From Escherichia phage BYEP01, in sequence record OR757453.1: 64,000 nt of DNA; one strand, 5' to 3'. The translations under genes were made by a program, and so were the position numbers. Positions within the stretch are counted from its first letter, which is position 1; the number at the start of each line of letters is the position of its first letter. The notes below the pieces were generated by a model that worked only from the letters and a program-made list of their open reading frames with translations, did no database searches and had not been told where the DNA came from. Below are positions 633-51,468 of this stretch, piece by piece.

Positions 633-895
633 TAATTGAGGCCTGAGTATAAGGTGACTTATACTTGTAATCTATCTAAACGGGGGACCTCTCTAGTAGA
701 CAATCCCGTGCTAAATGTGTAGGACTTTGGTTCTACCTAAATGCCTAACGACTATCCCTTTAGGGAGTAGGGTCAAGTGACTCGAAACGATAGACATCTT
801 GCTTCATCAAGATGGAGATATAGTCTGATCTGTATGGTGACATGCAGCTGGATATAATTCCGGGATAAGATTAACGACCTTATCTGAACATAATG
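633..895 (+). ncRNA. group I self-splicing intron in td, ~263 nt, no internal ORF
   Basis: Interrupts td between ...VFLG and LPFNIAS...; begins taattgaggcctgag right after exon-terminal U, contains gggtcaagtgactcgaaacg core-like segment, ends ...acataatg (terminal G) before exon 2; too short to hold an endonuclease ORF. Confidence 0.8.
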
Positions 896-1494: not shown

Positions 1495-1774
1495 ATATAA
1501 ATCCGACTTTGATGTTAATATTCACCGTGGTACATTTTGGGGAAATTACGTCGGTAAAGATGCTGGCAGCCGGGAGGCTGCCATTGAATTATTCAAAAAA
1601 GATTTTATACGTCGAATTAAATCCGGAGAAATAACTAAAGCACATTTAGAGCCTTTACGTGGAATGAGGCTAGGATGCACATGTAAACCAAAGCCGTGTC
1701 ATGGTGATATAATAGCTCATATAGTTAACCGATTGTTTAAAGACGATTTTCAAGTTGAGGACTTATGCAATTAA
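1448..1774 (+). CDS. DUF4326-like protein (RVVNK...FWGN...GCTCKPxPCHGD motif), nrdA.1 position
   Basis: 108-aa ORF with conserved Cys/His motif [15 protein letters not shown]; overlaps nrdA start. Confidence 0.55.
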
Positions 1775-3198
1775 TTAATGTTATCAAAAGTAGTGGTGTT
1801 TCTCAGAGCTTTGACCCACAAAAAATTATTAAAGTTTTATCTTGGGCAGCTGAAGGAACATCTGTAGATCCTTATGAATTATATGAAAATATTAAATCAT
1901 ATCTCCGTGATGGAATGACCACTGATGACATTCAGACTATTGTCATTAAGGCTGCTGCGAATTCTATTTCGGTTGAAGAGCCTGATTATCAATATGTAGC
2001 TGCACGCTGTTTAATGTTTGCTCTTCGTAAGCATGTTTACGGGCAATATGAACCACGTTCATTTATTGACCATATTTCTTACTGCGTAAATGAAGGTAAA
2101 TATGACCCTGAATTGTTGTCAAAATATTCAGCAGAAGAAATTACATTTTTAGAATCAAAAATTAAGCACGAGCGGGATATGGAATTTACTTATTCCGGGG
2201 CGATGCAATTAAAAGAAAAATATCTAGTTAAAGATAAAACCACTGGTCAAATTTATGAAACTCCACAGTTTGCATTTATGGCTATTGGAATGGCACTGCA
2301 TCAAGATGAACCTGTTGATAGATTAAAACATGTCATTCGTTTTTATGAAGCAGTATCTACTCGACAGATTTCATTGCCAACTCCTATTATGGCTGGTTGT
2401 CGTACTCCAACTCGACAGTTTAGTTCATGCGTTGTTATTGAAGCAGGTGATTCGCTGAAGTCTATCAATAAGGCTTCTGCTTCAATTGTTGAGTATATTT
2501 CTAAACGAGCTGGAATTGGCATTAACGTTGGTATGATTCGTGCCGAAGGTTCTAAGATTAGCACAGGTGAAGTGCGTCATACTGGTGTTATTCCTTTTTG
2601 GAAACATTTTCAGACTGCAGTTAAATCATGCTCACAGGGTGGAATTCGTGGCGGCGCTGCTACTGCTTATTATCCTATTTGGCATTTGGAAGTTGAAAAT
2701 CTTCTCGTTTTGAAAAATAACAAAGGCGTAGAAGAAAACCGTATTCGTCATATGGATTATGGCGTCCAGCTGAATGATTTGATGATGGAACGTTTTGGAA
2801 AGAACGACTACATTACTTTGTTCAGTCCACATGAAATGGGTGGTGAGCTTTATTATTCTTATTTTAAAGACCAAGACCGTTTCCGTGAATTATATGAAGC
2901 CGCAGAAAAAGACCCTAATATTCGTAAAAAGCGTATTAAAGCCCGTGAACTGTTTGAATTGCTCATGACTGAACGATCAGGAACAGCAAGGATTTATGTA
3001 CAGTTCATAGATAATACGAATAACTATACTCCGTTTATTCGTGAAAAGGCACCTATTCGTCAGAGCAACTTGTGTTGTGAAATTGCTATTCCAACAAATG
3101 ATGTGAATAGTCAACAAACCCGTTTAATCAAAATTAAGAAGTCGGATGTAGCTAAGTTTTATGAAGCTAATCCTGGCGGTATAATTCAAAGCAAATAA
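1765..3198 (+). CDS. nrdA: ribonucleotide reductase large subunit, N-terminal fragment (477 aa), ends shortly after the SNLCCEIAIPTNDVN active-site segment
   Basis: Class Ia NrdA homology (ATP cone to NxCxE active-site loop); ORF terminates ~26 codons after the last recognisable NrdA residues. Confidence 0.85.
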   Translation: MQLINVIKSSGVSQSFDPQKIIKVLSWAAEGTSVDPYELYENIKSYLRDGMTTDDIQTIVIKAAANSISVEEPDYQYVAARCLMFALRKHVYGQYEPRSFIDHISYCVNEGKYDPELLSKYSAEEITFLESKIKHERDMEFTYSGAMQLKEKYLVKDKTTGQIYETPQFAFMAIGMALHQDEPVDRLKHVIRFYEAVSTRQISLPTPIMAGCRTPTRQFSSCVVIEAGDSLKSINKASASIVEYISKRAGIGINVGMIRAEGSKISTGEVRHTGVIPFWKHFQTAVKSCSQGGIRGGAATAYYPIWHLEVENLLVLKNNKGVEENRIRHMDYGVQLNDLMMERFGKNDYITLFSPHEMGGELYYSYFKDQDRFRELYEAAEKDPNIRKKRIKARELFELLMTERSGTARIYVQFIDNTNNYTPFIREKAPIRQSNLCCEIAIPTNDVNSQQTRLIKIKKSDVAKFYEANPGGIIQSK

Positions 3199-3246
3199 AG
3201 TACACAGACCGTTAATAATAAATAATCCATAACAAGAGGAAAAGTT

Positions 3247-3957
3247 ATGGATTATTCTAAAATTTACAATAACCTTATTTCTAAAGCTAAGAATAGAAAA
3301 TTAGATTGCTATACCGAATCACACCATATTATACCTCTGTGTATTGGCGGTTCTGATACAAAAGAAAACCTGGTAGATTTGACACCAGAAGAGCATTACA
3401 TAGCTCATCAATTATTAGTAAAGATATATCCAGATAATCATAAATTGATATTTGCCGCTAATATGATGTGTGTTTATTCTGAAGATAATATTGAACGAAA
3501 GAACACCAATAAACGTCATGGGTGGCTTAGAAGAAAATTGGCTATTTCTGTATCTGAAAATAATAAAGGCAAACCGGCTTGGAACAAAGGTATTCCTATG
3601 TCTCCAGAAGTTAAATCTCGACTTCAAACATCTTGGGTGTTTACATTTCCGGATGGTCATGAGGAAATTCATCGAGGTCTTAACGAATTTTGTAAAGAGC
3701 ATAATTTAAATGCATCTGCGATGTCAGCCGTTTGTAAAGGTAAACGGGCGCATCACAAAGGATTTAAGTGTAAGAAATTGGATAAGATTTCAGAGCTTGA
3801 TAATTTAGTTTTCGTCAGTAAACCTCATCCAAAGGGATTAAAACCCCATAACTTAATTGCTGTAAAAATAAACGGTATAGAATATCAATCAATACATCGA
3901 GCATCTAAAGCTTTAGGAATTACTAGAAAAAAGGTAGAAGAATTAAATGAATATTGA
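3247..3957 (+). CDS. HNH homing endonuclease, free-standing, inserted inside nrdA
   Basis: 236-aa ORF with N-terminal YSKIYNNLI...TESHHIIPLCIGGSDTKENLVDLTPEEHYIAHQLL HNH motif; paralogous to ORFs at 30598-31290 and 49730-50542. Confidence 0.8.
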   Translation: MDYSKIYNNLISKAKNRKLDCYTESHHIIPLCIGGSDTKENLVDLTPEEHYIAHQLLVKIYPDNHKLIFAANMMCVYSEDNIERKNTNKRHGWLRRKLAISVSENNKGKPAWNKGIPMSPEVKSRLQTSWVFTFPDGHEEIHRGLNEFCKEHNLNASAMSAVCKGKRAHHKGFKCKKLDKISELDNLVFVSKPHPKGLKPHNLIAVKINGIEYQSIHRASKALGITRKKVEELNEY

Positions 3958-4936
3958 TTATGAATTTGTAGATGAATTTTACGAAGATGATGAGTATACT
4001 ACAATAGAAGTTATTGAAAACAGGGGAGAAGTGGGGCTTTGTACCCTTAGCGCATTTGTGTTGGATAACTTCGATTGGCAAGACCAAGACAAAATTAATG
4101 AATTAGCAGAAGTTCAAGTTCGTGCTCTTGATAATCTTTTGGACTACCAAGGATATCCAGTTCCTGAAGCAGAAAAAGCTAAAAAGCGTCGAAACCTTGG
4201 CGTAGGTGTTACTAACTATGCAGCTTGGCTGGCAAGTAACTTTGCTTCTTATGAAGATGCTAACGATTTAACACATGAACTATTTGAGAGATTGCAGTAT
4301 GGACTCATTAAAGCATCCATTAAGCTCGCCAAAGAAAAAGGACCTTGCGAATATTATTCAGACACTCGTTGGTCTCGAGGCGAATTACCTATCGACTGGT
4401 ACAATAAAAAGATTGACCAAATCGCAGCTCCAAAATACGTTTGTGATTGGGACGAACTTCGATCTGAACTCAAACAGCATGGAATTCGAAATTCTACTTT
4501 ATCCGCGTTGATGCCGTGTGAATCATCCAGTCAGGTATCTAACAGTACAAACGGTATCGAGCCTCCACGTGGACCAGTCTCTGTTAAAGAATCAAAAGAG
4601 GGTTCCTTTAATCAAGTCGTGCCCAATATTGAGCATAACATAGACCTCTATGATTATACGTGGAAATTAGCTAAGAAAGGTAATAAACCTTATCTTACGC
4701 AGGTAGCTATTATGCTGAAATGGGTATGTCAATCAGCTTCAGCGAATACATATTATGACCCGCAGATTTTTCCAAAAGGAAAGGTTCCAATGTCTGTAAT
4801 GATTGATGACATGCTATACGGATGGTATTATGGCATTAAAAACTTCTATTATCATAATACCCGTGATGGTTCTGGTACTGATGATTATGAAATAGAAACT
4901 CCCAAAGCTGAAGATTGTTCATCCTGTAAATTATGA
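3947..4936 (+). CDS. nrdA: ribonucleotide reductase large subunit, C-terminal fragment (GEVGLCTLSAF... to C-terminal Cys pair)
   Basis: Class Ia NrdA C-terminal homology including the CTLSAF cysteine loop and C-terminal CSSCKL tail; own ATG overlapping the HNH gene stop. Confidence 0.8.
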   Translation: MNIDYEFVDEFYEDDEYTTIEVIENRGEVGLCTLSAFVLDNFDWQDQDKINELAEVQVRALDNLLDYQGYPVPEAEKAKKRRNLGVGVTNYAAWLASNFASYEDANDLTHELFERLQYGLIKASIKLAKEKGPCEYYSDTRWSRGELPIDWYNKKIDQIAAPKYVCDWDELRSELKQHGIRNSTLSALMPCESSSQVSNSTNGIEPPRGPVSVKESKEGSFNQVVPNIEHNIDLYDYTWKLAKKGNKPYLTQVAIMLKWVCQSASANTYYDPQIFPKGKVPMSVMIDDMLYGWYYGIKNFYYHNTRDGSGTDDYEIETPKAEDCSSCKL

Positions 4937-5663: not shown

Positions 5664-5967
5664 AAAATGCGCCTTTAAACGGTAACGTTTATCGAAAACT
5701 CCTTTAATTGCTGGAAAGTCCTTTATAGGAAAACTAGCAGCCAAGGTTTTGCTTGCACCTTTAATTAGCATAATATAAATGATTATACTTTTAAGAGGAT
5801 GCACAATTGCAAAGCAAGGTTCAACGACTAGTCTTCGGACGTAGGGTCAAGCGACTCGAAATGGGGAGAATCCCTCTGGGATTGTGATATAGTCTGGTCT
5901 GCATAGTAATATGTAGCAGTTCATAAGAGAACGGGTTGAGAATTAGCGAGCTCAATCGAACATAACG
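5664..5967 (+). ncRNA. group I self-splicing intron in nrdB, ~304 nt, no internal ORF
   Basis: Separates NrdB ...SFAC from TFNFHKNMEIMEGNAKI...; contains gggtcaagcgactcgaaatgg segment nearly identical to the td intron core; boundaries inferred from restoring the NrdB frame. Confidence 0.7.
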
Positions 5968-30599: not shown

Positions 30600-31290
30600 A
30601 TAAATTAACTGTTTTTCTAAGTATTCTTAGTTTGTACATTGATAATCCAGTAGCTTTAGAAGCATCTTTCATGCATTTATACTTAACACCATTTACTTCT
30701 ATAGGTTTAGCAGCTGGGTTATTAGCTCCTGAATTATCTGGCATGTTATCTTTAATTTTCTGAATAGATTTAGCGGAATGTTTCCTTCCATACATGCCAT
30801 TATTTTTACCTGATTGATTGATAGAATGCAATCTTTTAGCTTCTTCAGTCCATTTTGTTGGGTTCATTCTTTTAGTTTTACTAATTTTACTTCCCCACGT
30901 AATTGGACGATTTTTCATGAGTTTTGACATATATTGTTTATGTTCTTCCGTATGGTGTTTTCCGTAAAATGGATTACCTTCACCTGATTGAAGTTTTGCC
31001 ATTTTACGACGTTCCCAGGCGTAAGATTTATTAACGTGTCTTTCATGAGTATTTGAATTCATTCCCATACATATAACGGCTTTAATTATACCGTAATGGT
31101 TTGGATGAATTTTAGCTAAAAGTTTATGAGCTATAAAATGCTCTTCAGCTGTTAGTTCTACCAAATTACACTTATCATCTGTACCACCCATACATCTAGG
31201 AATTATATGATGAGTTTCAGTGTATCCATTAAGGCGAGCCCGATTCTGGGCTCTATTAATTAAATTATCATATATTAATTTATAATTCAA
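30598..31290 (-). CDS. HNH homing endonuclease, free-standing, between uvsW and uvsW.1
   Basis: 230 aa; YKLIYDNLI…TETHHIIPRCMGGTDDKCNLVELTAEEHFIAHKLL; paralog of 3247-3957 and 49730-50542. Confidence 0.8.
   Translation of the reverse strand: MNYKLIYDNLINRAQNRARLNGYTETHHIIPRCMGGTDDKCNLVELTAEEHFIAHKLLAKIHPNHYGIIKAVICMGMNSNTHERHVNKSYAWERRKMAKLQSGEGNPFYGKHHTEEHKQYMSKLMKNRPITWGSKISKTKRMNPTKWTEEAKRLHSINQSGKNNGMYGRKHSAKSIQKIKDNMPDNSGANNPAAKPIEVNGVKYKCMKDASKATGLSMYKLRILRKTVNL

Positions 31291-48957: not shown

Positions 48958-51468
<2,511 letters not shown>

Follow-up and report, generated by a model that had tools for sequence, protein, structure and literature searches.

The td gene of Escherichia phage BYEP01 raises the question of what interrupts it: the frame for thymidylate synthase (Td) breaks off after …RSVDVFLG and resumes 263 nt later at LPFNIAS…, a distance far short of the 1017 nt of the td intron in the T4 record. 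The DNA analyzed here (record OR757453.1, a stretch of 64,000 nt called the window below) opens in the frd-td-nrdA-nrdB block of a T4-like phage, and its first 8 kb are ~94–96% identical to many Tequatrovirus genomes. The td gene is bordered by the tail of an upstream ORF (1-83) and by homologues of T4 nrdA.2 and nrdA.1. An initial annotation had read the insert as a minimal td group I intron that lacks an endonuclease ORF. The Rfam search, the alignment with T4, and the helix checks agree with that proposal, and we consider it highly probable that the insert is a T4-type group I intron from which the homing-endonuclease gene has been lost. The parts of the gene are as follows:

84-632, + strand: td exon 1, Td residues 1-183, ending in …RSVDVFLG (from translation and colinearity with T4 Td)
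633-895, + strand: putative td intron of group I (IA2-type), 263 nt, ORF-less (from Rfam, T4 alignment, and canonical helices)
633-635, + strand: UAA in frame with exon 1, intron bases 1-3; also present in T4; closes ORF 72-635
895, + strand: omega-G, the terminal guanosine at the 3′ splice site (from the sequence)
896-1207, + strand: td exon 2, LPFNIAS… up to the stop codon; the CUU at its start can form P10 with 638-640

The borders of 633-895 and the frame break between RSVDVFLG and LPFNIAS, as first described, proved exact to the base in sequence, translation, and T4 alignment, and the exon-terminal U and the terminal G that had been pointed out are both there (U632 and G895). The final codon of exon 1, GGT, occupies 630-632, and the intron opens at T633 with TAATTGAGGCCTGAG…; its 5′ end reads UAAUUGAGGCCUGAG and its 3′ end …CTGAACATAATG, closing with G895. 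Exon 2 starts from C896 with CTT CCA TTT (LPF). Joining 84-632 to 896-1207 gives a Td of 286 aa that is colinear with T4 Td and shares 274 of the 286 residues with it, and both exons are intact and conserved in this comparison. The sense strand of the intron contained no ORF longer than ~30 codons. Annotation pipelines use the AUG at 893-895, the last three bases of the intron, as the start of an exon-2 CDS (893-1207), and public records list two "thymidylate synthase" CDSs, the second from the AUG at the intron 3′ end. The intron was annotated in none of the short-intron records examined.

The covariance model that had been named as a check (Rfam RF00028, Intron_gpI) matched positions 623-847 over its full length (1-253) with 64.1 bits (E = 6e-14), above the gathering score of 50 and well outside what chance would give. 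The 48 nt beyond the match are the P9.1 and P9.2 extension, which the T4 td intron also has. When the T4-type td fold was written onto the window sequence, 80 of the 80 base pairs of the P1–P10 helices were canonical, so that the P1–P9 pairings anticipated for the intron were all found. The core segment quoted in the initial annotation, gggtcaagtgactcgaaacg, lies at 771-790 and corresponds to P7.2 and the strand into P3′. The predicted elements are:

626-647, + strand: P1, exon CUUGGGU (626-632) with the internal guide GCCUGAG (641-647); U632·G641 wobble at the 5′ splice site
648-663, + strand: P2 hairpin (pair check, MFE fold)
671-676 and 789-794, + strand: P3 (pair check, allele alignment, MFE fold)
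680-709, + strand: P4-P5 domain, with P4 at 680-685/704-709 and P5 at 690-692/698-700
710-711 and 743-744, + strand: P6, enclosing P6a (pair check, MFE fold)
717-737, + strand: P6a hairpin, a 7-bp stem (719-725/730-736) with a UUUG tetraloop (726-729); the MFE fold gives the same hairpin
750-754 and 821-825, + strand: P7, 5 bp, invariant in 11 alleles, including G750-C825 of the guanosine-binding helix
755-783, + strand: P7.1 (755-766) and P7.2 (770-783), a hairpin pair typical of subgroup IA
795-814, + strand: P8 hairpin, with a compensatory change at 797/812 (A-U in T4, U-A in the window)
830-884, + strand: P9 (830-847), P9.1 (848-863), and P9.2 (864-884) (pair check, alleles, MFE fold)
638-640 and 896-898, + strand: P10, covarying G·U / U-A

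P10 of the T4 td intron has been described as 2 bp (PMC8554844). The features of subgroup IA2 and of the T-even type are present (P7.1/P7.2 between P7 and P3′, and P9.1/P9.2), and the sequence is homologous to that of T4 td.

Unconstrained MFE folding of 623-900 gave every helix except P1 and P7. P7 is pseudoknotted with P3, and the guide strand of P1 is taken up by a lengthened P2 and by a long-range outer stem. Relative to shuffled sequences the fold energy has a z-score of only −2.1; energy by itself is weak evidence, and it is the match to a known architecture that carries the argument for the fold. We also aligned 11 distinct alleles, trimming by hand the loop interior of those with long inserts. 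Canonical pairs filled 99.5% of the pair cells, against 30–44% when the 3′ partners were slid by 1–3 columns, and no shuffle reached the observed covariation score. P1 is paired in 11 of 11 alleles, where it varies from G·U to A-U and from U-A to U·G, and U632·G641 is retained in all of them. Double-sided changes occur in P8 (A-U to U-A, carried by the window), P9.2, and P10. Most pairs are invariant, and the covariation, which rests on a few of them, supports the structure, short of proof. By fold and family, the insert is a group I intron that would be self-splicing.

The steps of splicing can be predicted from established group I chemistry. A ribosome would halt at the UAA at 633-635. The td pre-mRNA would fold into the standard group I ribozyme, and free guanosine bound in P7 would attack after U632, held in P1 by its U·G wobble with the guide. 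The freed 3′ OH of exon 1 would attack after G895, with P10 aligning exon 2. Joining of …FLG to LPFNIAS… would yield an mRNA for full-length thymidylate synthase.

The initial annotation had stated that the T4 td intron is ~1 kb long as it houses I-TevI and that the present copy is essentially its ribozyme part. Alignment with T4 bears this out. The 263 nt of the window correspond to nt 1-93 of the T4 intron plus its last 169, with 10 substitutions and one inserted base over the 262 shared nucleotides, and identity to these ends is ~96%. The gap, which the same alignment had been meant to locate, comprises 755 nt of the interior of loop L6a. The entire I-TevI gene is gone with its ribosome-binding-site hairpin, bar the last five codons. 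The late promoter and operator of T4 I-TevI are reported to fall inside the missing stretch of L6a. The hairpin by which the ribosome-binding site of I-TevI is sequestered lies in L6a in T4 (PMC3073962). What is left of the gene is short:

731-748, + strand: I-TevI 3′ remnant, TTC TAC CTA AAT GCC TAA (FYLNA*; FYINA* in T4)

This remnant doubles as the 3′ strands of P6a and P6 and runs into P7. About 20 nt are common to the I-TevI ORF and P6a, P6, and P7 (Edgell, Chalamcharla, & Belfort; PMC3073962), and the retained I-TevI bases are exactly those that overlap the three helices according to that work. The junction reads GGAC-UUUG-GUUC, and each base of the loop is explained by the T4 flanks GGACT/T… and …AAT/TGGTTC (a slash marks the breakpoint). 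The P6a arms that flank the ORF in T4 now form a 7-bp stem under the UUUG tetraloop, with I-TevI-lineage sequence on both sides of the junction: UGUAGGAC in the 5′ arm and GUUCUAC, with the FYLNA* codons, in the 3′ arm. The deletion appears to have taken only what the ribozyme does without. That L6a is dispensable is known from the P6a-permuted td ribozyme and from tdΔ1-3: the td intron is active when circularly permuted at P6a (PMC8554844), and tdΔ1-3, the I-TevI-deleted intron used as the standard non-mobile control, showed 1% homing versus 33% for the intact intron (PMC1865063).

We infer from these comparisons that the allele is a deletion derivative, that is, that the polarity of the change was loss and not gain. 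A single deletion of 755 nt in L6a of an I-TevI-bearing intron, leaving P6a with a tetraloop, would account for it. Core sequences vary too little for the alleles to be dated: those of T4 and sutha have 3 differing sites, whereas the I-TevI genes of the two differ by 12%.

Records were counted in the INPHARED phage collection. The I-TevI gene was present to 80% or more in 187 records, and 155 of the 216 matching records were at least 99% identical to it. A short td intron, in more than one allele, occurred in 36 records. In 186 records the td junction was either intronless or interrupted by less than ~560 nt, which leaves roughly 150 that are intronless. The shortened alleles are:

PD112, CE1, and 215Ecol030PP: 262 nt; junction identical to that of the window
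Shinka type: 320 nt; retained I-TevI 3′ end longer by 57 nt
FL18 type: 445 nt; both ends of the ORF kept
Klebsiella phage EI: 315 nt; fourth I-TevI codon fused to the C-terminal end, with GGAAT on both deletion flanks in T4
Metagenome contig L025 (Ga0180732_1015345): 393 nt, intron at ~2296-2688; 151 nt left in L6a; apparently a separate deletion
236Ecol005PP, N2, and GRNsp7 (Tequatrovirus): 254 nt; short unrelated P6a hairpins, GUUCUUUUGAAC and CAGCAGUAGCUG
SEA1 (Gelderlandvirus): 250 nt; P6a hairpin GUUCGAAAGAAC; no I-TevI-lineage P6a arms

At least four of these (315, 320, 393, and 445 nt) appear to be further independent deletion alleles, which indicates that loss of I-TevI is recurrent. 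The P6a of 236Ecol005PP, GRNsp7, SEA1, and N2 is a 4-bp hairpin, with UUUU, AGUA, or GAAA loops and without I-TevI-lineage arms; SEA1 also has compensatory changes in P9.2 and a P8 hairpin that is shortened and differently sequenced. ORF-less td introns thus occur in at least two genera and would be old, and the 250–254-nt hairpin introns may represent the form that existed before invasion.

No match to the P6a junction of the window in a td context was found in the metagenome collection. A conserved 26-mer of the td core matched only six metagenome contigs and one IMG/VR contig, mostly with full-length introns. An 18-mer of the P6a hairpin, GTAGGACTTTGGTTCTAC, matched five IMG/VR contigs (L015-L019). 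These were rejected as td junctions: they represent one homologous locus outside td, in which the hairpin is followed by a T-run. At these sites an intrinsic terminator (AAAGG…CCTTTTTT) follows a gene unrelated to td and has the hairpin as its stem-loop, and the identity of the 18-mer is most likely due to chance.

Variable intron sites were compared across 15 alleles. Site 130, the junction, and an A-to-C change at the foot of P6a (737) are common to the window and 215Ecol030PP. Sites 165, 173, 175, 180, 196, and 201 (in P8, J8/7, and P9) have the state of the 236Ecol005PP/N2/GRNsp7 lineage. The window intron is a mosaic of two ORF-less lineages, most simply explained by a crossover between intron positions 130 and 165; recombination with another ORF-less td intron lineage would then have come later than the deletion. 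Two changes are found in the window only. One, A54G (window position 686), lies in the P4-P5 loop and occurs in no other of the 15 alleles; an internal-loop element between P4 and P5 helps to dock the splice-site helix in other group I introns. The other is the insertion of G717, which in the MFE fold pairs with C737 and leaves U718 bulged, restoring a closing pair that 215Ecol030PP lacks.

Because PD112, CE1, and 215Ecol030PP have the identical junction, the deletion would be older than phage BYEP01, and the allele was probably inherited or acquired already ORF-less. Two origins had been offered at the outset, loss of the endonuclease ORF in this lineage or receipt of an ORF-less intron. They are not exclusive, and something of each stands: the intron has the look of a deletion derivative, yet its junction predates the phage. 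The accompanying term, intron "domestication," found no support.

A clean junction can be read in the opposite direction, since insertion of an ORF into a UUUG loop would give the same junction as a clean deletion. The 262/263-nt form would then never have had I-TevI and would predate both the insertion into the P6a loop and "core creep," the lengthening of the endonuclease frame into the ribozyme core, an idea already published (PMC3073962); ORF-less td introns with short hairpins in two genera (236Ecol005PP/N2 and GRNsp7, and SEA1 with several compensatory changes) speak for such an ancestral empty intron. We nevertheless regard it as unlikely. The old ORF-less lineages have a different P6a, and the core of the present form is near-identical to that of I-TevI-bearing alleles (PD112 and sutha differ at 1 site). 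The allele is also rare, in three public phages and the window against 187 records of full-length I-TevI, and the I-TevI ORF has been partly deleted in four or more further alleles, which indicates that loss is frequent.

Loss of the endonuclease gene from an intron that would still splice, the reading we prefer, has to be set against two further possibilities. If the intron were dead, td would be a pseudogene or would encode two polypeptides, exon 2 being translated from the AUG at 893-895; the two CDSs of public records, the second from this AUG, and the A54G change in a core junction could be taken in this sense. However, every helix is preserved, as are the terminal G and the U·G pair at the splice site, both exons are complete and conserved, the P8 change from A-U to U-A and the G717/C737 pairing indicate continuing selection for the fold, and the AUG is the conserved intron 3′ end, …ACAUAAUG in all alleles. 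This makes a dead intron or a split gene very improbable. No Shine-Dalgarno-like sequence was apparent just upstream of the AUG at 893-895. The idea that td is made as two proteins was rejected, the ribozyme being intact and covarying. Collapse of the ORF out of a real 1-kb intron during assembly is hardly credible at all: three independently sequenced phages have the same junction, where the stem-loop is perfect and no flanking repeat is long enough to mislead an assembler.

The deletion bears directly on mobility. The GIY-YIG endonuclease ORF by which a mobile intron is recognized is absent from L6a, where the last five codons and the stop remain. A tblastn search detected no other copy of I-TevI in the 64-kb window. 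As for collaborative or trans homing, no free-standing endonuclease gene adjoins td, and the nearest one is a MobE-like ORF inside nrdA, 2 kb off. Without I-TevI, there would be no self-driven homing. The intron would persist because only precise excision would leave td functional.

The cuts that I-TevI makes in intronless DNA lie upstream of the insertion site, at distances of 23 and 25 nt, and its DNA-binding domain wraps a 20-bp region centered on that site (Edgell, Gibb, & Belfort; PMC2988022). The window intron puts 263 bp between the halves of this region, and an allele whose binding region is split in this way would be resistant to I-TevI and not a recipient. Its initial description as a "natural recipient" for I-TevI homing was mistaken, since the primary binding site is split and the enzyme cleaves intronless DNA (PMC2988022). 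The other label given to it, "contrast allele," fits: this would be a contrast or immune allele and a natural equivalent of tdΔ1-3, which was made in the laboratory (PMC1865063). A td gene with the window intron should not be cleavable by the I-TevI of co-infecting phages. Were an intronless td cut by the I-TevI of a third genome, the allele could serve as the template for repair and so spread passively. One may go further and see in the ORF-less td introns stable, circulating alleles that recombine with each other and are perhaps kept for cost-free immunity to I-TevI, and not mere products of decay; we hold this broader view to be possible but doubtful. If true, these alleles would, together with the 250–254-nt forms, make up a natural before-and-after series for the invasion of L6a by I-TevI and for core creep.

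Other introns and endonuclease genes were seen in the window. The group I intron of nrdB (5664-5967, + strand; 68.7 bits in Rfam) is also ORF-less and has 304 nt versus 598 nt in T4. Relative to T4, it has a 294-nt deletion between two ACAATTG repeats (junction at ~5803-5809), the I-TevIII relic is gone, and the spliced NrdB (392 aa) is intact. With td and nrdB both ORF-less, both introns of the window would have lost their endonuclease genes.

The nrdA region (1765-4936, + strand) consists of NrdA-a (1765-3198), an HNH ORF (3247-3957), and NrdA-b (3947-4936). An HNH endonuclease gene, MobE-like and with 45% identity to T4 MobE, cuts the gene in two and overlaps nrdA-b. The break falls between the equivalents of the active-site residues Cys439 and Cys462, and each half has a unique tail of ~25 aa. 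No credible RNA-family match at E ≤ 1 indicated a group I intron around this endonuclease gene; the search returned two weak matches to unrelated families (E ~0.4), far under their gathering scores. Many public Tequatrovirus records have two nrdA CDSs as well. A coliphage-type genome thus shows the "genes in pieces" arrangement known from Aeromonas phage Aeh1 (PMC3045599).

Two more regions of the window, both on the minus strand, contain endonuclease-like ORFs:

30625-31290, − strand: MobE-like match at 30982-31290; just downstream of it, at 30625-30819, a weak match to the C-terminal DNA-binding region of I-TevI
49748-50542, − strand: MobE-like match at 50222-50542; just downstream of it, at 49748-49969, a weak match to I-TevIII

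A literature search found no paper describing this 755-nt deletion allele of td. The same junction is nevertheless in three public genomes, and judged from these sequences the deletion is real but ordinary and already known. On its own, it has little importance. Its practical value lies mainly in annotation, as public genomes label the exons as separate thymidylate synthase genes and leave the intron unmarked. The allele series as a whole (full-length, 445, 393, 320, 315, 262/263, and 250–254 nt) is a resource on endonuclease decay, on intron recombination, and on which bases of L6a and P6a are needed.

Among the closest known systems is the td intron of T4 with its I-TevI gene. Gene, insertion site (after the GGT of …FLG), ribozyme, P1–P10 helices, and the UAA at the start are the same, whereas the window copy lacks 755 nt of L6a, I-TevI, and the expression signals in L6a, and hence autonomous homing. 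Others are the 262-nt td introns of Escherichia phages vB_vPM_PD112, vB_EcoM_CE1, and 215Ecol030PP, with the same junction and, in 215Ecol030PP, the same A-to-C change in the closing position of P6a. From these the window differs by the extra G717, by A54G, and by a 3′ core (P8, J8/7, P9) of the hairpin lineage.

Sandegren and Sjöberg reportedly noted, in 2004, inactivating deletions in several intron endonuclease genes of T-even-like phages. The T4 nrdB intron is likewise a T-even group I intron in which the endonuclease has decayed by deletion and splicing is kept: its I-TevIII is defunct, a deletion mutant of the RB3 version (PMC2993671, PMC1865063). T4 nrdB keeps a relic of 97 codons, whereas the ORF of the window td intron is essentially gone. 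The laboratory intron tdΔ1-3 (PMC1865063) and the P6a-permuted td ribozymes (PMC8554844) resemble the window in that I-TevI is out of L6a and the ribozyme is kept; those ORF-deleted introns were engineered, and the window allele is natural. Within the life cycle of homing endonucleases (invasion, fixation, degeneration, and loss; PMC5009752), the td intron of BYEP01 would occupy the stage at which the endonuclease is lost and the intron retained.
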